The notes under the pieces are model-generated. The model was not told the origin of the DNA. It ran no database searches and saw nothing but the letters and a program-made list of their open reading frames with translations. A DNA stretch of 55,905 bases from a virus (Duplodnaviria; Heunggongvirae; Uroviricota; Caudoviricetes), in IMG/VR virus record IMGVR_UViG_2698536580_000003, positions 1-55,905 of that record; one strand, written 5' to 3'. This document shows, piece by piece, positions 1 through 54,507 of the stretch; positions within the stretch are counted from its first letter, which is position 1; each line of letters opens with the position of its first letter. Both the position numbers and the translations under genes were made by a program.

Positions 1-279
1 GGTGAACGCACTATGGCGACGCTGGGGCGTCTTATGAGCCTGCTGTCACCCTTTGACGTGGTGATATGGATGACGGATGGCTGGCCGCTGTATGAATCCC
101 GCCTGAAGGGAAAGCTGCACGTAATCAGCAAGCGATATACGCAGCGAATTGAGCGGCATAACCTAAATCTGAGGCAGCACCTGGCACGGCTGGGACGGAA
201 GTCGCTGTCGTTCTCAAAATCGGTGGAGCTGCATGACAAAGTCATCGGGCATTATCTGAACATAAAACACTATCAATAA
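1..279 (+). CDS. insB: IS1 transposase InsB, C-terminal fragment (5' end outside window)
   Basis: Translation ...[50 protein letters not shown]... matches IS1 InsB C-terminus from memory. Confidence 0.9.
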
Positions 280-294
280 GTTGGAGTCATTACC
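1..294 (+). mobile_element. IS1 insertion sequence, right-hand portion (remainder outside window)
   Basis: InsB reading frame open from base 1; canonical IS1 terminal inverted repeat atcaataagttggagtcattacc ends at 294. Confidence 0.9.
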
Positions 295-855
295 CAAGTG
301 TTTAAATGGAATAACCTCTGATTCTATATCAGGATTAATACATGAAATAGCGGTAAAATAACATGCCATTTTGTAATAGTTTTCCAAATGTAAACCAGTA
401 CATTCTAAAAACTTATCTTTATAATATAATTCATCATTCAAGCAATACCAAATATACTGTCTTGTTAATGAATTGGCATTAAATTTATCAGTTGATTGAT
501 AAAGCAACTGATTTATCACCATTCGTCTAAGGCTTAGCATAACTTTATCATCAACGATTAAATTAGATGCTTCTAGTTGCAAGTTATAGATTAAGTTGAT
601 AATATCAACAAAATCATTTTTACTCATTTCTTTTGCAGGCTTTTTTTCCTTCATGCAAAACTTCCATTTCATTGCCAGATAGCAACACCAAGGGAAATTG
701 GAAACAATACCCACCTCGACATCCCTTACTTTTTGGAAGTGTTCATAAAAATTTCTCAAAAAAGAAACATCACTAAAATATGACAATCTTTTCTTAATCG
801 CATCAACTTTTATAGAATATGACACTGGTGTCATTGTTTTTATTGCCACGCTCAT
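295..855 (-). CDS. hypothetical protein, 3' end interrupted by the IS1 insertion
   Basis: ORF 214..855 with AAGG-type RBS; frame runs into the IS1 terminal repeat so the native C-terminus is lost or replaced; AT-rich; no motif recognised. Confidence 0.45.
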
Positions 856-1457
856 AAAAAACCTTTTATGATAAACATAGAGAAATATTTTATTTAAAAA
901 TTATCAAATACACGTTAATAAATATACATTTTTTAATTTTGCGTGCAACCCTATCCCCAATCAATACAAAATATTGTGCACACAAAATTGAAGAAGCCTA
1001 TAACTATAGGTGCCTACTGACACCTATCAAGAAACTTGTTCACCCCCGACACAATTTAATTTGGCGTAGCTCACAATGTTCTCCTCAGCACACCTACCCC
1101 CCACTTTATAGGACAGTTTTCATGCAGTACATGCATAAACAAAAGCTCATCAGTTCTGGTGGTTCCTCACCACGAACATGCAGATAATACCTCAAAACAT
1201 CATGTAACAATGTTGGCATTACGCCACCAGCCACAAAAAAGCCCTACCCTTAGGCTTAATGTTTGGCTTGGCTGTTGGCTTACTATAACGCCCCGCTCAC
1301 CGTCGCAGCCTGTTCGGTTTCCGCCACTGATACGGCCTCACATCATCATGCTGATAGATGTCGACGGGCTACCAGTACCATTTGCTCACCAACCCCATAT
1401 TTTCCATGTTAATCTTCTCTTTCCACATGCTTTGTATGGTAATAAGCAAAAGGAAAA

Positions 1458-1715
1458 ATGATGAACACTAAGGTGAAAGAAGCAGTAAAATGTTGGGCTT
1501 CTAGTCCAACGTGGTTTAGCAGGCATCCAATGGATACGGCGGAGTTCCGACGGGCTGTTTCAAATCTCAAGCGCATTACCCCTACCCCATCTTTCGAAGA
1601 AATCAAAGAAGCGATCATGTTCTTTGTTTCCGATGCGCCAACAATGCTAGGTACGCCGTCGGATATTCCTCAGGCGGTTCATGACTTCGCTGGAAAAATT
1701 TATAACAAGCTGTGA
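1458..1715 (+). CDS. hypothetical small protein (85 aa)
   Basis: ORF with AAGGA RBS (aaggaaaaATG); followed by hairpin. Confidence 0.4.
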   Translation: MMNTKVKEAVKCWASSPTWFSRHPMDTAEFRRAVSNLKRITPTPSFEEIKEAIMFFVSDAPTMLGTPSDIPQAVHDFAGKIYNKL

Positions 1716-1742
1716 GCAAAATGCGGGCTATCCCAGCCCGCA
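1714..1742 (-). terminator. putative intrinsic terminator hairpin between convergent genes
   Basis: Perfect 7-bp stem GCGGGCT/AGCCCGC (1723-1729 / 1735-1741) with 5-nt loop; T-run follows on minus strand. Confidence 0.5.
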
Positions 1743-1749
1743 TCCCTAA

Positions 1750-1959
1750 TTAACGCCGTAACTTGTTTGGCTTCGTCCATTGGTACGCCTTTTCGTTTTC
1801 CCGCCGCTGGTGGCGTTCCTGTTGCAGCACAACGGAAACAGGCGCTGAACACCTGTTAATTTTGCTTGCTGGTTGTTTGATTCCGGCAATGCTGCGGATC
1901 ATCTCCAGCATATCGGCTTCGGTGATGGTCATAGGTTTCCTATCAGCACTCATATCCAA
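1750..1959 (-). CDS. hypothetical small protein (69 aa)
   Basis: ORF directly downstream of 1982..2566 in same orientation; ends before terminator hairpin. Confidence 0.4.
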   Translation of the reverse strand: MDMSADRKPMTITEADMLEMIRSIAGIKQPASKINRCSAPVSVVLQQERHQRRENEKAYQWTKPNKLRR

Positions 1960-1981
1960 TTAATAAGTTCAATACAATGGA

Positions 1982-2566
1982 TTATCCCGTTTTAGTGACT
2001 AACCATTGCAGAATAACGATAATTAAATATGTTAATGTGCCAGTTCCAAGAAGTATTAATAATTGATAGCAACGTAGGGCAATATTACTAATCGATTTTT
2101 GCATCACGATATTCACTGGCTCAGCCACACACTCTTTAGATCTTATCGATAGAATACTTGGAACTTCTCTATTTATTGATAATATTTCACATTGAATAGA
2201 CTCACCAGGTGCAAGGCTTTCAAACTTGATAATATAGCGACCATCCTGTTCAATATTTTCTTCAAAATGGTGGACAGGCCAAAAATTAATATGCATTGGC
2301 TTATAGTTAAAAACCAATGAGATATTAGTAGCACTTTCTCGCCCTTCATTAACAAGAATAATAGATCGTGTATACACCAACTGTGAATTAGATATTACCT
2401 CACCATTGGCATTCCGTAAGGGTTCATTGAGAAGAAAAGTAAATCCATGCTGATAACCATAGGATAACTTTGCCTTGCTTTTAAATCTGTTATTCAGTAT
2501 CCATGTTAAAATCGTTATAAAAAAAGAAAATAGTTCTTTCCCATAAAGACTAAAAAAACTCATCAC
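1982..2566 (-). CDS. hypothetical membrane protein (N- and C-terminal hydrophobic segments)
   Basis: 194-aa ORF; hydrophobic stretches FFITILTWIL and LLILLGTGTLTYLIIVILQWLV; AT-rich. Confidence 0.5.
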   Translation of the reverse strand: MMSFFSLYGKELFSFFITILTWILNNRFKSKAKLSYGYQHGFTFLLNEPLRNANGEVISNSQLVYTRSIILVNEGRESATNISLVFNYKPMHINFWPVHHFEENIEQDGRYIIKFESLAPGESIQCEILSINREVPSILSIRSKECVAEPVNIVMQKSISNIALRCYQLLILLGTGTLTYLIIVILQWLVTKTG

Positions 2567-2685
2567 ACATTTCCTTCAGTAATCTGATTCTGCTGTCAAA
2601 GCTACCAGCACTATAGTCATTCATCCACATTGCGACAAGAAGGTTACAGCACGTCCAATCACACCTTAGGAAATCTTAGGGGGCT

Positions 2686-2960
2686 GGTTGACACTTTCCG
2701 GCTTAAGACCTTAATAAATCTTAATATCGCAGGTTGACACACTTGACACTTTTTCGCGAAAAACCTTAGCATTTCTAAGCATGGCAACTTGACATTTTTC
2801 GCGGTTTTTTCGGCTTTTTGACGTGGTAAATCTGGCACAAACCCAGTAATTGCGGGGCTTACAGCGAGGTTGACACTTTTTCGCGTTCAGAGTGTAAAGT
2901 GTCAACCTGGCAACCTGGCAAGCTGGCAAGCTGGCAAGCTGCTCAACTTGACACTTTTTG
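2686..2960. repeat. array of about 7 copies of GTTGACACTTTTTCGCG-like motif, plus a 12-bp perfect inverted repeat and a (CTGGCAAG)n octamer tandem tract
   Basis: TTGACAC at approx 2688, 2733, 2742, 2788, 2817 (variant), 2869, 2948 and inverted at 2897; GGTTGACACTTT / AAAGTGTCAACC inverted pair 2868-2879 / 2897-2908; octamers 2906-2942. Confidence 0.75.
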
Positions 2961-2963
2961 ATG

Positions 2964-3509
2964 TCATTGATGGTCTGATTTTTCCCACTCAGCCAGGGCG
3001 TTTAACCCGGCTTCACTCCATGATTCCGGTTCATCGGGATAATCACCTGCAACATAGCAGAGTTCGCAACGCAGCATACGAATTGCCAGCCTGGCATTAC
3101 CTCGCAAATTGTATTTTTCAAAGTAATGCTGCCCTTCATCATCCTCAAGGCAGATAGCACCATCATCAAGAAAGTGCACTTCCCAGCCTAATTCCCCGGC
3201 TGCATACAGCACACGCTGCTGTATGCCCTCGTCCGTTACTGGCGCAGGAATTTTACCGTCTCTGGCCTTAACTGCTTTCCAGAACTCGCCCCATGTCATT
3301 TCCAGCGTTCTTTCTGGCCACATTTCAGAAATGGTGTCTTTCCCCTGTGCTGGTGGGCTGTTCCGCTGCTCTGTCGCTTCCACATCAATTTTTTTACCGG
3401 ACATGACCACTTCGCCTTTCTCGAGCCAGTCGTAAACTGTCTGGCGGCTTACGCCTTTGTATTTGGCGTATTCGGCTTTACTCATCAACATGTAGCTCAC
3501 CTCATGCAT
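2964..3509 (-). CDS. HTH DNA-binding protein with acidic C-terminal domain (function unknown; possibly packaging or regulatory)
   Basis: N-terminal KAEYAKYKGVSRQTVYDWLEKGEV helix-turn-helix-like segment; start codon uncertain (several Met near N-terminus). Confidence 0.55.
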   Translation of the reverse strand: MHEVSYMLMSKAEYAKYKGVSRQTVYDWLEKGEVVMSGKKIDVEATEQRNSPPAQGKDTISEMWPERTLEMTWGEFWKAVKARDGKIPAPVTDEGIQQRVLYAAGELGWEVHFLDDGAICLEDDEGQHYFEKYNLRGNARLAIRMLRCELCYVAGDYPDEPESWSEAGLNALAEWEKSDHQ

Positions 3510-3590
3510 ATACGATAAAAAATAATTTCATGCGGAAAGGGAATGCGTTGTGGGTATGGAGGAAAGGGGCAATAACCGCCCCTTACTGAT

Positions 3591-3863
3591 TCAGTTGCGC
3601 CAGGATGGCTGGCTAAGCGTGGTTTTCATTACATCATTGACGACCTGTTTTACGATTTCTGTGTTGGCAGTCGTGCTTTCAACATCAACAAAGCCATAAT
3701 CGCCAATTTCCACCGTCAGGGATTCCAGTTTCTTCCCTAGAGCATCAGGCAACTCTCCACTGAACCGATGCTGAAGATTTTCCACCAGCAACGCCCTGAA
3801 TGCCTCGCTGTTCTCTTTTTTCTGCCATAGCTGGCGTTTATCCACTCTGATATTTAATTTCAC
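3591..3863 (-). CDS. hypothetical protein (90 aa)
   Basis: ORF overlapping upstream small gene by 4 bp. Confidence 0.45.
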   Translation of the reverse strand: MKLNIRVDKRQLWQKKENSEAFRALLVENLQHRFSGELPDALGKKLESLTVEIGDYGFVDVESTTANTEIVKQVVNDVMKTTLSQPSWRN

Positions 3864-4027
3864 AGTCTCACCTCTTTAAGTGCCTTATCCATCAGTTGCC
3901 GAGCGATAACATGAATCGACGGTGCCACACCAAGCACAGATTTCTGACGCTCTTCGTCCTGGATGCGTTGCAGGGCTTCGATCTGCCTCCGGGAAAGTAA
4001 AACTGGCTTTACTCCGTGATTTTTCAT
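3860..4027 (-). CDS. hypothetical small protein (about 55 aa), start trimmed from ORF 3860..4189
   Basis: Internal Met MKNHGVKPVLLSRRQIEALQ... preceded by AGGGA RBS; upstream part of the long ORF is Cys-rich and not protein-like. Confidence 0.4.
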   Translation of the reverse strand: MKNHGVKPVLLSRRQIEALQRIQDEERQKSVLGVAPSIHVIARQLMDKALKEVRL

Positions 4028-4295
4028 GATGATCCCTTCTGAATGACAATAATTGCAATTATTGCACAAATTGAAATGATACCAGAGACAATTGCAATAA
4101 ATGAAACGAAAAGCATCAATAAACCAACCTTCGGCACTGAATGCTCTGATTTTTCTGCAAAGGTATGGCAGATGCAAACATAAAGGCAATAGCAGAAGAA
4201 GCAGCGGGGAGTGAAAAGGGGAAGTTTTTATAAATACACGATTGTCGCCTCACTGCAGGTTAACAGCCACAAGCTCCATGATAATAACTTGTTAA

Positions 4296-4619
4296 TTATT
4301 TCATCAGATTTTTCATTATTTGCGCGATTGAGTACACAAGCAAAAACTCGGCAGCCGCAAGAGTATAAAAAACATAAATTCGCTTAGCCCACCGACGATG
4401 AAAGAACTCCTCAGCATGGCCGGATGTTCGAGATACAAGCCATGCACCTACTGCACACAGAGCAGGTGCAATGAGCACAGTTATAAACCAGATTGTGATG
4501 CCCATCCCATGCCTACTGATAATAGCCATTGGTATTGCAAAAATGAATGTTAGAGCAGCATTAGCTAATAGAATATCTTTTAAAGTATTTTCAATTAGTT
4601 TTGCTAGATTATCTTTCAT
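4296..4619 (-). CDS. small integral membrane protein (107 aa)
   Basis: Multiple hydrophobic helices (ALTFIFAIPMAII, ITIWFITVLIAPALCAVGAWLV, FLLVYSIAQIM). Confidence 0.55.
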   Translation of the reverse strand: MKDNLAKLIENTLKDILLANAALTFIFAIPMAIISRHGMGITIWFITVLIAPALCAVGAWLVSRTSGHAEEFFHRRWAKRIYVFYTLAAAEFLLVYSIAQIMKNLMK

Positions 4620-4683
4620 CTAATCCCCCACGTTGAACATTAATATATAAAAGCCCCTTACTAAGGGGCTTTGCACGGATTGT

Positions 4684-5826
4684 TTAAAGGGAACTTTTTT
4701 TCGCCCCTTCAATTTCTGCCTGACAAATTTCGTCATTTGTAAATGAGTACTGCAGATAGACATATCCCTGAGTGGAATTGTTCGCTCTGGCCTCAATAGA
4801 TATAGTATCAATATTGTTTTTTAATGGTATTTCTTTTGTTCCCTTCCATGTGGCAGATAAGAAGCGTTCTTTTTTGTTTAGCCCCCTCATCCAGTCCTGA
4901 GGATCTTTCCAAATTGAACCAGCCAGCAAAAAGTCTGTAGTATCAGCCTTTCCATACAGAGAACTTAAAGAATTACTCAATTCTTCAAACTTGGATTTAA
5001 GAGCCAATCCATAGCTATCAGTATCAATATTTTTTCCTAAAGCCCGTATTTGACATAAACCAGCTTTCGGGGAGATCAGCAAACCATACATTTCAAAATC
5101 TGCGTTTTGCTTCGGTAATTTATCAGAAGTATACAGATTCACACTGTCTGGTAGTGGCTTGAGCTTAGCACCGATCATATCTTCGATGTTTTTCTGTGTA
5201 AGACCGGCTTCTAAGCCAAACGGACCATCCGCTGGCGGGAGTAAAGGAAGTTGCTCTTGGGAATTTTTGGCTGTTACTTCCGTTTCAGTACTGTTTTTTG
5301 CGTCATTAGCTTGTACTGATGCCAGCTTAACTTCAGCGAGGCCATACTTGGCTGTGAGGTACTTTTGCTGCAACATTGCCATGGTCTGCTCTTCAGTGGC
5401 AACAGTAGATAATTTTAGTACCTTTATCAGACCACCACTATACTGACGAGCATCAGCTTTGGCTTCGTTGATTTTTGCATCTAAGCTGTCAATTTCAGTT
5501 TTAATTGAAGCCGCAAGCTCAGGATCAGGTTTTACTCCAGATACAACAACATCAATTTTGGCACCTGATTCAATAGCATTAATACGCTGTTCCAAAAGCG
5601 CTTTATTAGTTCCTAATATTTCCAGTCTTGCTGTTGTCAGATTTTTTATCAACCCACCAGAAAACTGCTGGTCAACTTCCTTAGCTGCTGATATTTCACC
5701 TTCCGTTTGCGACAGTTCAGCTTTAAGAGCAGCTACTTCCTGTTTCTGTTCTGGAGTTAACTCTTCTGGCCCACATCCGGTTAACATTACTATACCGACT
5801 AATGTTGCAATTAAAGTTTTATTCAT
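4684..5826 (-). CDS. lipoprotein with coiled-coil region and internal QYSGGLIK / QFSGGLIK repeats
   Basis: Signal peptide with lipobox LTGC near N-terminus (MNKTLIATLVGIVMLTGC); 380 aa. Confidence 0.7.
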   Translation of the reverse strand: MNKTLIATLVGIVMLTGCGPEELTPEQKQEVAALKAELSQTEGEISAAKEVDQQFSGGLIKNLTTARLEILGTNKALLEQRINAIESGAKIDVVVSGVKPDPELAASIKTEIDSLDAKINEAKADARQYSGGLIKVLKLSTVATEEQTMAMLQQKYLTAKYGLAEVKLASVQANDAKNSTETEVTAKNSQEQLPLLPPADGPFGLEAGLTQKNIEDMIGAKLKPLPDSVNLYTSDKLPKQNADFEMYGLLISPKAGLCQIRALGKNIDTDSYGLALKSKFEELSNSLSSLYGKADTTDFLLAGSIWKDPQDWMRGLNKKERFLSATWKGTKEIPLKNNIDTISIEARANNSTQGYVYLQYSFTNDEICQAEIEGAKKSSL

Positions 5827-5960
5827 ATCCCTATTCCAAATGAAAATATTCAGATTAATCTTATCAGGAACCCAGATGCAATTGAATATTCATCTGCTCA
5901 GCAACGTAGTAGATTTCCTCAGAAAGCATCAACAAAAAACCAAGAGAATCCCATCCTCTG

Positions 5961-6248
5961 TTACTGACTACAATTGTTCTTTTTTTGGTATTTCCTGAAT
6001 GCCTCACCATTGGGCTGATGTAATCCCATCCCGGCATGTGCCCGGCTGATGGTTTCGCGCATCTCCCCGAAATTATCCTGCCTTGCTGGTGGGCGTGCTG
6101 CCTTGTGGATACATTCCGCGCGACGTTTTGCCGCCTGTTCCCGTGCCTTGTCATCATTCGCCAGCATGATGACCTCAGCCCACCGCGCCGCCGCTCTCCG
6201 GTACAGACCACGCGCTTCCAGTGCTTCCGCTTTGCTGTCGTGAATCAT
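5961..6248 (-). CDS. PerC-family transcriptional regulator (start set at internal Met to give ATGA overlap)
   Basis: Motif LEARGLYRRAAARWAEV resembles PerC/Pch signature as recalled. Confidence 0.55.
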   Translation of the reverse strand: MIHDSKAEALEARGLYRRAAARWAEVIMLANDDKAREQAAKRRAECIHKAARPPARQDNFGEMRETISRAHAGMGLHQPNGEAFRKYQKKNNCSQ

Positions 6249-6787
6249 GCGCCTATTGTCTCCTTTGCTGCCCGGCACTGGCGTTTGCGCTTCTCATTCA
6301 GCGCCACCAGCCGCGTTTCTGCGTCCTGTTGTTCCTGTGGTGTCACCTCGCCGCACGGCTGGCCTTTCAGGTCGTAGCGTACCCCACCAGCCATTAAGGC
6401 GCGGTAATAGCGCGGACACTGCGCATAAGATGCCAGCGTCGCACGCAATGCCCCTGGCCCGAATGCCAGCCCCCTGGCGGCGAGATCCTGCATCAGGTCG
6501 TCGAATATCCCCACCTTAAGCGGCTTCAGTGCTTCCCGGCTGAATAAGTCAGGCCACAACTCAGTGAGGCGGTTAACGCGCCTGCGGTTTTTGCGCTGGC
6601 GTTTGGTCATATGCCGCCACGGTGTCGCCCCTGTAGGCTTCTGCTGCGCTTTCTGGTTACCGGGCATCACTTTATGCGCCGATGTGGTTTTATCCTGCTC
6701 CTGTGCCGCCTGCGTCGTTTTCTGCGGCGTGCCGTAAATACCTTTTGGTTTTCTGTTAATGGTCAGCTTAGTCATGCTTTGCCCCAT
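6245..6787 (-). CDS. ProQ/FinO-domain RNA-binding protein
   Basis: Segment LWPDLFS...PLKVGIFDDLMQDL...LRATLASYAQCPRYYRALMAGGVRYDLKGQPCGEVTPQEQQDAETRL parallels ProQ N-terminal FinO domain (PLKIGIFQDL...LRSALRLYTSSWRYL...RVDLDGNPCGEL) as recalled. Confidence 0.7.
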   Translation of the reverse strand: MGQSMTKLTINRKPKGIYGTPQKTTQAAQEQDKTTSAHKVMPGNQKAQQKPTGATPWRHMTKRQRKNRRRVNRLTELWPDLFSREALKPLKVGIFDDLMQDLAARGLAFGPGALRATLASYAQCPRYYRALMAGGVRYDLKGQPCGEVTPQEQQDAETRLVALNEKRKRQCRAAKETIGA

Positions 6788-6795
6788 CGTTACAA

Positions 6796-7132
6796 CTGTC
6801 TACCAACTGTCTACCGATATAATTGATTGATTTATTTAATGTTATTAACACATAACAAAAAAACAATCTGCAAACTGTCTACCAACGGTCTACCGCATTA
6901 ATACATTGATAATTAATGATTTTTACTAAATGGTAGACAGTGTAGACAGTTAAAAGAGAAATTTAAAAAATGCCCCCTTAACTATCTGTTTTTTATATAC
7001 CCCCCGTGGTTTAGGAATATAGAAATAACTGTCTACCTCTCTACTACATTGAAAATATCTTTATAATTCAAAATATTAATTGGTAGATGGTTGGTAGAGG
7101 GTTAAGTGAATCTGTCTACCAACCGTCTACCT
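6796..7132. repeat. iteron cluster, putative satellite replication origin (ori/crr-like)
   Basis: At least 10 copies of CTGTCTACC / GGTAGACAG (direct and inverted) at 6796, 6808, 6875, 6886, 6932, 6941, 7029, 7082, 7093, 7112, 7124, interspersed with AT-rich tracts, immediately downstream of the primase gene. Confidence 0.65.
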
Positions 7133-7158
7133 TTACGTTTCAGCTTATAAATTTCGTA

Positions 7159-8964
7159 TTATGTTCTGTCGTTAATCCCTGTAGCTGCTGGCAACCAGCC
7201 ATCAGCATCATCATCTAACAGAACATTTGTTATCACTCGCCCTTTATCCGGGCCTTTAGTGCATTTAGCCCGCTTATACTCCTTTCCGTATTCCGCCATA
7301 GCTCCTGGCATATCAGTACCAAAGCGTGTCAGTGATACTGGTTTTCCCAGGCCATGCGCTGACATATAGGCTAAATAAGCATGATACAGGTATCGCCTCG
7401 GGCTAAATGGCACTATTTCCGCATTGCCCACCATCATTCCTTCACATTTAACCAACGACATCAGATAGCCGCAAAAGTCCACCAGTGAATCACCTTCGCG
7501 CTTTATCAACAGCGCTTCTTCTGATTTTTGCTGCTCATAAAGTAGTCTTTTAGCTTCGTCCTGGTCGGTAAATCGTGTTAGCAAATGGCGAATCACTACC
7601 GCCAGTTCGCCTTCTATCTTTTCCGCCAGCATGGGATCGCGTTCGTTCTCCGGTACGACCTCAGAGAAATTAAATATCACCCTACGACGCGAGATCCCCC
7701 CGCTTCGGTCACTGAATGACATGGCGTTATTGTTTACCGCAAGCACTACTGCCGGAATACGTGTGGAGTAGGGGGCTTTATGTTTCGGATCAATTGCCAC
7801 CTTGTCGCCGCCAGTAATTGCCTTAATTCCTGCACCATCGCCAGCGTAGCGAGTCATATCCGGCATGATAATCAGCGAAAAGCCAACTACTAACGCGCGT
7901 TCCCTTGCGTCTTCCAGAGCCTTCATGCTTGCCGATACTGTGTTGGCCTTACCCGCCAGCATGGTACAAATCTCAGCCATCACACTTTTACCGCTTCCGC
8001 CTGGGCCTGTTACCTCAAGGAATAACTGCCAGTCGTACCGGTTCGCCAGCACCATGAATAATGCCGCCAGTACGCGATCAGCTTTACGATCATTATCTGC
8101 CACCGAACGACGCAGCCACTTCCAGAAATTCGGCGCATGTGTTGCCAGCGTTTCCCCCTCTGCTGGTGGGCTGAACGGTAATTCACTGGCATTTAACAAC
8201 CAGTCATTTTTGTTATGCTCCCGAAAATTTCCCGTCCGGGTATCAAATACCCCGTTACTGAATCCAATAAGATTCCTGTCTGCCCCGCCCATAACAGGCA
8301 GGCTCAATTTCATTGTGTCTACGGCAAATTTAATGGCGTTTTGCGAATAACTGATTCCAGCATCAATAAAAATCTTCGCCATAGACCGCTGGAGTTCCTT
8401 ATCAGATACAGGCACCCAGACAATTCCGTTGTAATGGTGAACTACATCAGAATCATCATTTATAGCCAGTGCTCTTCCATAATATTCAAGTAACACTTCC
8501 CCTCTCTGGCTGGCTCCCATCTGATTTAGTGCTGGCCTAGATAGGTCAATATTTTTTGTGGCTAATTTCATCGCTGAAACTTCCCCACTCTCTGCCTGTT
8601 CGCGGATCCGTTGCAGGTAGTCGCGCCAGTTTTCCGGCTCCCGGTCGGTGATACCTTTGTATAATTTCGCGTCCTGTACACCAGCCAGCGCCAGCTTTTC
8701 AGCAATAGCATTGATCTGGATTGGCTCTATCTCCCCCGCGAGATAGACACGCGCAAAGCGGCGTTCATCGTCGACAATGCGGATATTCGCCAGGTCTGCC
8801 AGTTGCTTTGGCCCCAGGTAAACAGGAGGCACGTTATCGCCGTGTTTTCGTCCTTCGCTTTCAATCCAGTGTTGAGCATGGGCGTAAGCATCCGTCCCAG
8901 CAAAAATGATTACCTCGGTGAATTTATCCTTCGGCTGATATTTTAAATTCGGTGCGTTTTTCAC
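7159..8964 (-). CDS. P4 alpha-like primase/helicase (D5-type NTPase)
   Basis: 601 aa; Walker A TGPGGSGKSV; overall resemblance to satellite-phage primases. Confidence 0.8.
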   Translation of the reverse strand: MKNAPNLKYQPKDKFTEVIIFAGTDAYAHAQHWIESEGRKHGDNVPPVYLGPKQLADLANIRIVDDERRFARVYLAGEIEPIQINAIAEKLALAGVQDAKLYKGITDREPENWRDYLQRIREQAESGEVSAMKLATKNIDLSRPALNQMGASQRGEVLLEYYGRALAINDDSDVVHHYNGIVWVPVSDKELQRSMAKIFIDAGISYSQNAIKFAVDTMKLSLPVMGGADRNLIGFSNGVFDTRTGNFREHNKNDWLLNASELPFSPPAEGETLATHAPNFWKWLRRSVADNDRKADRVLAALFMVLANRYDWQLFLEVTGPGGSGKSVMAEICTMLAGKANTVSASMKALEDARERALVVGFSLIIMPDMTRYAGDGAGIKAITGGDKVAIDPKHKAPYSTRIPAVVLAVNNNAMSFSDRSGGISRRRVIFNFSEVVPENERDPMLAEKIEGELAVVIRHLLTRFTDQDEAKRLLYEQQKSEEALLIKREGDSLVDFCGYLMSLVKCEGMMVGNAEIVPFSPRRYLYHAYLAYMSAHGLGKPVSLTRFGTDMPGAMAEYGKEYKRAKCTKGPDKGRVITNVLLDDDADGWLPAATGINDRT

Positions 8965-54459: not shown

Positions 54460-54507
54460 AATGGTGCCGATAATAGGAGTCGAACCTACGACCTTCGCAT
54501 TACGAAT
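54460..54507. repeat. att direct repeat (within tRNA-Thr 3' half), partner of 15356-15403
   Basis: 48-bp identity to 15356-15403. Confidence 0.85.

Follow-up and report, generated by a model that had tools for sequence, protein, structure and literature searches.

The window analysed here comprises 55,905 nucleotides of the Escherichia coli chromosome at the tRNA-Thr gene thrW (IMG/VR record IMGVR_UViG_2698536580_000003). Within a phage satellite of the PICI (phage-inducible chromosomal island) type it carries an array of short repeats at 2660–2963, adjoining the 3' end of a minus-strand gene for a small winged-helix protein (2964–3491). As judged from sequence comparisons across several genera, this array is a set of sites kept up by selection and tied to the adjacent gene, and it probably represents the cognate multi-site DNA target of the winged-helix protein. 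The complex of both is tentatively proposed to be the packaging signal of the satellite, similar to a pac or cosB site. The repeats had already attracted attention in a previous interpretation made from the letters of this DNA only (the sequence-only reading), which placed them next to a helix-turn-helix (HTH) gene and offered several functions for them.

Conservation of the array and its linkage to the winged-helix gene

About 100 loci, encoding proteins between 100% and 36% identical to that of the window, were sampled from named records of Escherichia, Klebsiella, Enterobacter, Pantoea and Serratia and from uncultured contigs; the alignment comprised 47 loci, and 59 fetched loci with flanks of 8–18 kb were scanned for the strict core of the repeat. 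This 11-mer, GTTKACACTTT, was present in 55 of the 59 loci and was found only within 650 bp 3' of a homologue of the HTH gene. Array and gene co-occur in 166–167 of 5426 complete E. coli genomes, all 188 places in this species being chromosomal. The co-occurrence of gene and array and the confinement of the core to the DNA behind the gene agree with the earlier suggestion that the array is a recognition element for the HTH protein. The exact inverted pair of the array (described below) was met in 41 of 2.9 million IMG/VR viral contigs, nearly all of them already known through the gene and one new (L163). No array was detected in phages or in 72,556 plasmids at E ≤ 1e-5, the only matches being unrelated, low-complexity ones to the octamer in plasmids of Pseudomonas (three) and, among phage records, three that are due to chance at E ≤ 10. 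Nor was any homologue of the protein found on the same plasmids, which speaks against the centromere that had also been considered.

In most lineages three to eight copies of GGTT[G/T]ACACTTT (hereafter A sites) lie within 100–650 bp behind the gene, down to the lowest protein identity sampled; a few loci have only one or two A-like sites at the threshold used. Most lineages also share a core layout, in which a direct site is followed about 27 bp later by an inverted one and a further direct site abuts or overlaps the stop codon of the gene. The columns of the A sites are less variable than the rest of the array in the E. coli lineage (18/74 versus 117/206, Fisher p = 1.5e-6). Throughout the 47-locus alignment the array is conserved up to the stop codon of the gene, and the DNA past its far edge belongs to at least three unrelated types. 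Since close relatives differ by indels of 8, 10 and about 17–20 bp, the array is non-coding. That the repeats are functionless remnants of a degraded element, a possibility already raised by the sequence-only reading, would suit a window that starts in IS1 remnants and an island whose distal end is missing, but it is hardly credible for a site layout kept across genera, down to 36% protein identity, with variability lowered specifically at the motif positions.

Sites and motifs of the array

The exact heptamer TTGACAC occurs six times on both strands of the whole window, and all six copies fall within 2688–2954, starting at 2688, 2734, 2743, 2870 and 2948 on the plus strand and occupying 2899–2905 on the minus strand; the array noticed earlier is thus real. 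Shuffled, the window yields 7.4 copies per 55.9 kb, corresponding to about 0.035 expected in 267 bp and to a Poisson probability of ~1e-12 for six. The core of the A site common to the whole family spans only ~12–13 bp, RGTT[G/T]ACACTTT (or GGTT[G/T]ACACTTT), with family-wide information content at about -3 to +9 around T[G/T]ACAC. The longer unit of 16–17 bp described previously is found at some sites and in some lineages, its TTTTTCGCG tail being specific to these: the 16-mer TTGACACTTTTTCGCG stands without mismatch only at 2743 and 2870, has three mismatches at 2948, and recurs at 2790 in a variant that contains TTGACAT and is shorter by one T (TTGACATTTTTCGCG).

Six direct sites (S1, S2, S3, S4, S6 and S8), one inverted site (S7) and two degenerate direct sites were identified, close to the count of about seven direct copies and one inverted copy given before. 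S1 (GGTTGACACTTT, 2686–2697), S2 (GGTTGACACAC, 2732–2742) and S3 (CTTGACACTTTTTCGCG, 2742–2758) are all on the plus strand; S2 abuts S3, with starts 9 bp apart, and S3 is invariant across the aligned E. coli lineage. They are followed by S4 (CTTGACATTTTTCGCGG, 2788–2804, plus strand), which has TTGACAC in most relatives, and two degenerate A-like sites on the same strand, namely TTTTTGACGTGG at 2815–2826, a block of conserved columns, and GGGGCTTACAG (GGGGTTTACAG in relatives) at 2854–2864, within the conserved block CAGTAAYGGCGGGGnTTACAGC. S6 (GGTTGACACTTTTTCGCG, 2868–2885, plus strand) and S7 (2896–2907, minus strand, reading AAAGTGTCAACC on the plus strand) form the left and right arms of a conserved inverted pair in the alignment, and S8 (CTTGACACTTTTTGATG, 2947–2963, plus strand) abuts the stop codon of the HTH gene, its Klebsiella counterpart overlapping that codon. 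The perfect 12-bp inverted repeat GGTTGACACTTT / AAAGTGTCAACC pointed out by the sequence-only reading is present between S1 and S7, 198 nt apart; the nearer and evolutionarily conserved partner of S7 is S6, with arms at 2864–2879 and 2896–2911 that are 94% complementary and separated by 16 nt.

Interleaved with the A sites is a second motif, B (CCTTAGGAAATCTTAGG-type), which had previously escaped notice. Its three plus-strand copies are ACCTTAGGAAATCTTA at 2663–2678, made up of two half-sites 10 bp apart and lying ~8–20 bp from an A site, and ACCTTAATAAATCTTA at 2708–2723 and ACCTTAGCATTTCTAA at 2763–2778. The composite unit occurs also in the Enterobacter L055 and the L109–L139 lineages, with another half-site sequence. 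Across lineages, the tandem 10-bp form and the adjacency to an A site are kept, and the sequence shifts between CTTAGG, TTCAG, TTGAG and CTAAG.

The A motif contains the TTGACA hexamer, and a cluster of sigma-70 promoters had therefore been among the earlier proposals. This explanation, together with that of a structured RNA or 3' untranslated region element, is very unlikely. The copy at 2743, with TAGCAT at a spacing of 18 bp, is the only TTGACA with a usable -10; most others lack such a partner, promoter-like sites number 4 versus 5.1 ± 2.3 in shuffles, and the TTGACA copies face a convergent gene, into whose 3' end they are directed. The RNA of the minus strand folds somewhat better than shuffled sequences (z = -2.5), as any inverted copy would cause it to do, and the island encodes a ProQ/FinO protein; however, most copies are direct rather than inverted, an Rfam search of the array gave no match, and a G-to-T change in one arm of the inverted pair in Klebsiella is not compensated in the other arm.

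The tandem octamer tract recognised earlier, (CTGGCAAG)n, lies between S7 and S8 at 2903–2941, with a period of 8, 4.9 copies and 96% matches. Copy numbers of 1, 2, 3, 3, 5 and 7 were counted in loci that encode a protein 100% identical to that of the window, the length of the tract differs by +8, -16 and -24 bp between near-identical E. coli chromosomes, and the other lineages have a single CCTGGCAAGCTG or a diverged form. Because the copy number differs among near-identical loci and is single elsewhere, these sequences identify the tract as a repeat of the slippage type whose copy number varies and which is restricted to one sub-lineage, the 8-bp steps bearing out the slipped-strand variation that had been foreseen. 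The S7–S8 spacer in which it sits is naturally variable in length (28 to 47 bp between lineages), so that changes in length would be expected to be tolerated there; the tract is probably a slippage-prone spacer and not a functional unit, with a modulatory effect being possible.

The winged-helix protein

The 181-residue HTH open reading frame reported at 2964–3509 (minus strand) exists, but the relatives in RefSeq start at the ATG corresponding to 3491, which gives a two-domain protein of 175 residues. An AlphaFold model built from a 36-sequence alignment (mean pLDDT 88) consists of a winged helix (residues 1–45), a disordered linker (46–56) and an alpha/beta domain (60–172). Residues 1–42 are almost invariant across the family and the C-terminal domain diverges.

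Only a sub-threshold match to HTH_17 was obtained from Pfam. Against the PHROG profiles, all 36 members tested scored best with phrog_57, the small terminase (TerS), the best E-value being 4.6e-11, with matches spanning only positions 11–57 of the 199 in that profile; Cox-like, excisionase and MerR-like classes were also matched, in 27, 24 and 22 members, respectively. When 50,697 phage genomes were searched by tblastn, the sole match (E = 0.01) lay in the Nu1-type TerS of Serratia BZS1, a cos phage; it covers the N-terminal 38 residues of that TerS, with 47% identity (pairwise BLASTP E = 1e-9). It is clear that the N-terminal domain has the fold class of the DNA-binding domain of Nu1 TerS. 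The C-terminal regions by which TerS proteins associate with themselves and bind the large terminase (TerL) were not found in the satellite protein. Sequences in the PDB, including RppC (6hn7_A), gave no match at E ≤ 10 in single-sequence and profile searches, and a fold search of BFVD returned only generic HTH and excisionase matches, none at E ≤ 0.001. On the evidence of these comparisons the C-terminal alpha/beta domain is new, and the literature search found no paper on the protein family or the array.

The BZS1 genome (L181) contains short repeats of its own: three copies of GGTAACA at 48–75, between the annotated cohesive end and the start of terS, and five more at 240–300 inside terS, where they encode GNK peptide repeats. 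They are candidate cosB sites of a phage in which the TerS domain is the nearest phage relative of the satellite protein.

The winged-helix class includes excisionases, and the protein might be a Xis- or Cox-type factor, with the sites representing the arm of an attachment site (att). Such an excision-directionality array is extremely unlikely. Helper-embedded satellites of Klebsiella do have the array within a few hundred bp to ~1 kb of the satellite end, but in E. coli 1–4 kb of variable cargo lies between the array and the end of the island, and in the window no att repeat lies within 2.6 kb of the array, the only ones being the thrW repeats at 15356–15403 and 54460–54507. Moreover, the type of integrase changes between lineages with the motif remaining constant, and TerS profiles beat excisionase profiles in every member.

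Proposed function of the array

From the observed linkage, conservation and class of DNA-binding domain we infer that the protein binds the array, that a complex is formed, and, more tentatively, that this complex serves in packaging. Each winged helix would read one GGTT[G/T]ACACTTT site, and the C-terminal domains, on flexible linkers of ~12 residues, would join the bound proteins, so that ~300 bp of DNA would be gathered into one nucleoprotein complex. The interleaved B motifs with their 10-bp phasing, together with T5/A5 tracts, may aid bending or bind a second factor. The complex would then mark the satellite DNA for the terminase of a helper phage, the signal being read by a satellite-encoded TerS-like adaptor; the protein might act as a substitute for TerS or as an adaptor to the TerS or TerL of the helper. 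The conservation of both partners runs in parallel, residues 1–42 and the A motif being near-invariant and the C-terminal domain and the B motif both varying, and the variation in S7–S8 spacing and the 8-bp steps of the octamer tract fit domains on flexible tethers.

A role in packaging is suggested, firstly, because the closest sequence relatives of the DNA-binding domain are small terminases. Secondly, domain and site are conserved and the C-terminal domain varies, a pattern that matches the description of Rpp. Rpp proteins bind the TerS of the helper, block phage packaging and promote packaging of the island. Thirdly, the module occupies the packaging slot of PICIs, a minimal satellite keeps little else, and no other packaging determinant is visible. 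The module, made up of the gene, the array and usually also the small gene downstream, closes the conserved part of the satellite behind the primase and origin region, a slot that in PICIs holds genes for interference and packaging (PMC6092414), and the minimal satellite, L119, consists of int, DUF4222, the primase, a 261-aa gene, the winged-helix gene, the array and cargo. The module was encountered with differing integrases and primases, among the latter one of 601 aa carrying D5_N and one of 780 aa carrying Toprim and D5_N. Neither terS nor capsid genes were detected in the satellite part of the window. EcCIMP1, a sibling PICI at thrW that is mobilised by a helper and whose packaging mechanism is unknown (PMC11773190), carries a different module at the same locus.

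The cosB-like array put forward by the sequence-only reading is ranked first, since the DNA-binding domain scores best against the Nu1-type small terminase, but the lambda-type cosN belonging to such a site was not found, neither in the satellite part of the window nor in the 59 loci. Repeated sites are present as in cosB, with no recognisable cosN beside them and no similarity to phage DNA, although the cos of an unknown helper is possible; no site for IHF was recognised in the array. As there is no helper-like cosN, packaging would more plausibly be of the headful (pac) than of the cos type. A lambda-type cos as such was rejected, the region upstream of the gene being also not conserved. That region contains a terminator-like hairpin, GGGGCGGTTATTGCCCC followed by TTTCC (3572–3588, minus strand), right after the stop codon of a 90-aa gene, which superficially resembles the left half of lambda cosN. 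As a cosN this hairpin was dismissed, being not conserved, with other lineages having ordinary terminators or no spacer at that place.

Several observations weigh against a packaging signal. The array lies downstream of its gene, whereas the cos sites of lambda, N15 and the Rpp-type PICIs lie upstream of theirs (PMC9026076). Neither a helper-like cosN nor a sequence shared with phages occurs in or near the array, which makes a cos mechanism unlikely and leaves only a headful (pac) variant. The C-terminal domain is unlike the oligomerisation and TerL-binding regions of TerS and unlike Rpp, and other proteins of the winged-helix class (excisionases, Cox, BldC and MerR-like regulators) bind arrays of repeats to other ends. 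Furthermore, deletion of an Xis-like gene at the far end of EcCIMP1 left excision and packaging unaffected (PMC11773190); that gene, of opposite orientation, may be unrelated to the winged-helix gene. Finally, the small gene that starts 7 nt past the array in many relatives allows a regulatory role.

Such a role, with the protein as a transcription factor and the array as an operator, silencer or insulator governing the small downstream gene and the cargo (by repression, by a roadblock to read-through from the late operon of the satellite, or by activation), is the main rival of the packaging signal, though rather unlikely. The array lies exactly at the border between core and cargo, and the phrog_7271 gene begins just past it in Klebsiella and in the majority of the E. 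coli relatives; in the E. coli group, 7 nt separate its start codon from the first B motif. On the gene strand, S1 falls into the spacer of a weak candidate promoter (TTAAGC-N19-TAAGAT, read by eye), and the MerR-like, Cox-like and excisionase or regulator PHROGs match the domain in 22–27 of the 36 members. However, no A site is found at any other promoter in the 8–18 kb flanks, including the non-conserved upstream region of the gene itself, and the downstream partner varies by lineage, being the small gene, the inserted 194-aa gene, or unrelated cargo behind a terminator-like hairpin. Eight to ten sites over 300 bp go far beyond the need of a simple operator, the TTGACA copies are without -10 partners, and a near-invariant domain and site across genera would be unlike the diversifying repressor/operator pairs of phages.

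It is improbable, more so than an operator, that the nucleoprotein complex serves some other transaction, such as replication control or a second cis region (as crr of P4), partition of the excised episome (as Par of pSK1), or a decoy that interferes with the phage by titrating a helper protein. Direct repeats with one inverted copy beside a winged-helix gene resemble the iteron and centromere layouts of plasmids. P4 uses two separated iteron regions. The ccr of P4 is mentioned in the PICI literature (PMC6092414). On the other hand, the satellite has a separate, canonical origin at 6790–7150, directly 3' of the primase/helicase gene, in which a different iteron, AACTGTCTACC, direct at 6794, 6805, 6873, 6884, 7027, 7110 and 7121 and inverted at 6931, 6942, 7080 and 7091, flanks an AT-rich centre, in agreement with the layout described for Gram-negative PICIs (PMC6092414). 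Located 4 kb away, this region rules out the array itself as the replication origin. The module also occurs with unrelated types of primases and iterons, neither the array nor a homologue of the protein was seen on the 72,556 plasmids, and no partition NTPase gene was revealed in the satellite part by a family scan and the lists of open reading frames.

Returning to packaging, gene and array might together constitute a packaging-hijack module, the third in satellites of Gram-negative bacteria and hitherto overlooked, in which an adaptor with a TerS domain would assemble on a private multi-site pac and recruit the terminase of the helper without the cos of a helper. This generalisation, drawn from sequence comparisons, is put forward with still more reserve than the packaging signal itself.

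The satellite and its neighbourhood

The PICI-type satellite extends over ~1–15355 and stands in tandem with an SfV-like prophage (~15404–54459) at thrW. The prophage is bounded by two direct copies of 48 bp from the 3' part of the tRNA-Thr gene (15356–15403 and 54460–54507), and it is from this repeat that the tandem insertion of prophage and satellite is deduced. There is no third copy of the repeat in the window; the distal att of the satellite therefore lies outside the window or was lost beside the IS1 remnants (13–279) within which the window starts.

On the minus strand, the satellite encodes, in this order, the integrase (13977–15191), the primase/helicase (7159–8964), ProQ/FinO and PerC proteins, four genes of unknown function, the winged-helix gene (2964–3491), the array, a 194-aa gene and a 69-aa gene. 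The genes for the PerC-family regulator and the RNA-binding protein with a ProQ/FinO domain lie side by side at 5961–6787. PerC-like matches were seen in ~1176 of the 5426 E. coli genomes, mostly at 60–80% identity, with very short coverage and with other modules downstream.

The sequence-only reading had placed the array upstream of a membrane-protein operon. What is found there is a single, lineage-specific cargo gene of 194 codons (1982–2566, minus strand), absent in most relatives, for a predicted membrane protein with hydrophobic ends and no family match. It lies outside the conserved module and has a promoter-like site of its own (2638–2610, TTGTCG-17-TATAGT); it is probably cargo, inserted in only one sub-lineage between the array and the phrog_7271 gene. 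The latter, a small gene of 59–69 codons (phrog_7271/1561; 1750–1959, minus strand, in the window), follows the array directly, starting 7 nt past it, in most relatives, and is displaced here by the insertion.

Some further features were recorded around the cargo slot of relatives. Several lineages (L006, L025, L030 and L109–L139) have, 300–450 bp past the gene, a terminator-like hairpin (CCCACCGGCAGCGCCAGTGGGG then ATTTTTGG) and a conserved CGCTCTAAGTTACAGTTG, right past which their sequences diverge completely; this point is a sharp boundary of the cargo hotspot, or possibly a recombination site. Some Klebsiella satellites (L052, L054 and L089) have a DUF5681 gene (144–149 aa, GNPGGRPK motif) and an 82-aa gene in the cargo slot; other Klebsiella satellites keep only about the first 40 DUF5681 codons, fused to the region of the phrog_7271 gene. 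The DUF5681 gene was considered as a satellite terS and rejected, since it receives no terminase call from PHROG and occupies the cargo slot of an island that is embedded in a helper, within a baseplate gene. Helper-embedded Klebsiella satellites also contain direct and inverted ATGAACACC repeats in a 300–500-bp spacer upstream of the winged-helix gene (L052, 8700–8830; L098, 4700–4810). These resemble the type I iteron of P4, TGTTCACC, and may be a second replication region for the Toprim/D5_N primase of those satellites.

The neighbouring prophage contains gtrABC, an HNH/TerS/TerL module and a contractile tail. At 36138–37110 an apparent HNH-endonuclease-like open reading frame, recognised by eye, stands directly upstream of TerS and TerL in an HK97-like arrangement, and the N-terminus of this TerS, also read by eye, has no obvious helix-turn-helix. 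Between the HNH-like frame and TerS/TerL there is a long GC-rich hairpin, GGGGCGGG...CCCGCCCC, with nothing in common with the satellite. The earlier suggestion that the array promotes packaging by this prophage finds no support, as prophage and satellite share no match longer than 16 nt and the prophage uses its own HNH/TerS/TerL module; a packaging site common to both was rejected on the same grounds. The ends of the IMG/VR contigs were considered as physical DNA ends and discarded, being inconsistent and explained by prophage prediction or assembly breaks, and the 258-bp cos segment of 11capE (PMC10111431) belongs to a different, capsid-encoding island and is uninformative here.

Implications

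Many enterobacterial islands of the PICI type have no recognisable packaging module and are classed as doubtful or defective, and at least one of them, EcCIMP1, is known to be mobilised by a phage (PMC11773190). The module described here supplies a candidate protein and a defined 300-bp site for the packaging of such islands. If the proposal is true, the principle of Rpp, a mimic of a TerS domain with a private site, would extend to islands without the cos of a helper, and the mobilisation of abundant 'orphan' PICIs (thrW islands and helper-embedded satellites without rpp, terS, cos and capsid genes) would be explained; the variable C-terminal domain would then set the specificity for the helper. 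Since the islands carry PerC virulence regulators and, beside the array, variable and probably anti-phage cargo, the signal that moves them matters for the tracing of gene flow and for PICI-based delivery vehicles. If the protein is a regulator instead, the array would be a switch at the border of a cargo hotspot.

Comparison with known systems

With Rpp and the PICI cosB of the EcCICFT073 type (PMC6739421, PMC9026076), the satellite module has in common a satellite-encoded protein in which an N-terminal winged helix mimicking the DNA-binding domain of Nu1 is joined to an unrelated C-terminal domain, the conservation of domain and site between islands with a variable C-terminus (PMC6739421, PMC9026076), and the packaging slot after the replication module. 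It differs in that the protein has no sequence homology to RppC, its C-terminal domain being alpha/beta in contrast to the dimerisation helices of Rpp, in that the array is downstream of the gene and the Rpp site upstream, and in the number of sites, 8–10 against the one proposed R3. No lambda-like cosQ/cosN exists anywhere in the array-bearing islands; in the Rpp systems a helper-like cosQ/cosN stands directly upstream, with the start of rpp ~100 bp from the cohesive end, and this arrangement was found neither in the window nor in the 59 loci.

The cosB of lambda and its gpNu1 likewise combine ~12–16-bp sites, ~46–56 bp apart and one of them inverted, with a winged helix of the Nu1 class (PMC9026076), and Nu1-type TerS proteins are the best sequence matches of the satellite domain, for which binding is predicted. 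Short direct repeats (GGTAACA) beside terS are found in BZS1 as well. Unlike in lambda, the satellite array is 3' of the gene and without an adjacent cosN, and the protein is without the oligomerisation and TerL-binding parts of TerS; the sites are many, compared with one to three in the Rpp and lambda systems.

The arrays of Xis, P2 Cox, BldC and pSK1 Par, on which MerR-like winged helices polymerise along direct repeats, share the many direct repeats, which suggest cooperative head-to-tail binding. Their spacing, however, is ~10 bp, or they lie in att arms, promoters or plasmid centromeres, whereas the satellite array has a spacing of ~50 bp, with no att nearby (in E. coli), no promoter logic and no occurrence on plasmids. 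The iterons of the PICI/SaPI and P4 origins are also short direct and inverted repeats in a non-coding stretch of a satellite; the satellite's own origin, however, is elsewhere (6790–7150), with another iteron and an AT-rich centre, and the TTGACAC array travels with the winged-helix gene and not with the primase.

In its presumed working, the module is most like Rpp with the PICI cosB and lambda cosB with gpNu1, and its sequence marks it as a member of neither family.

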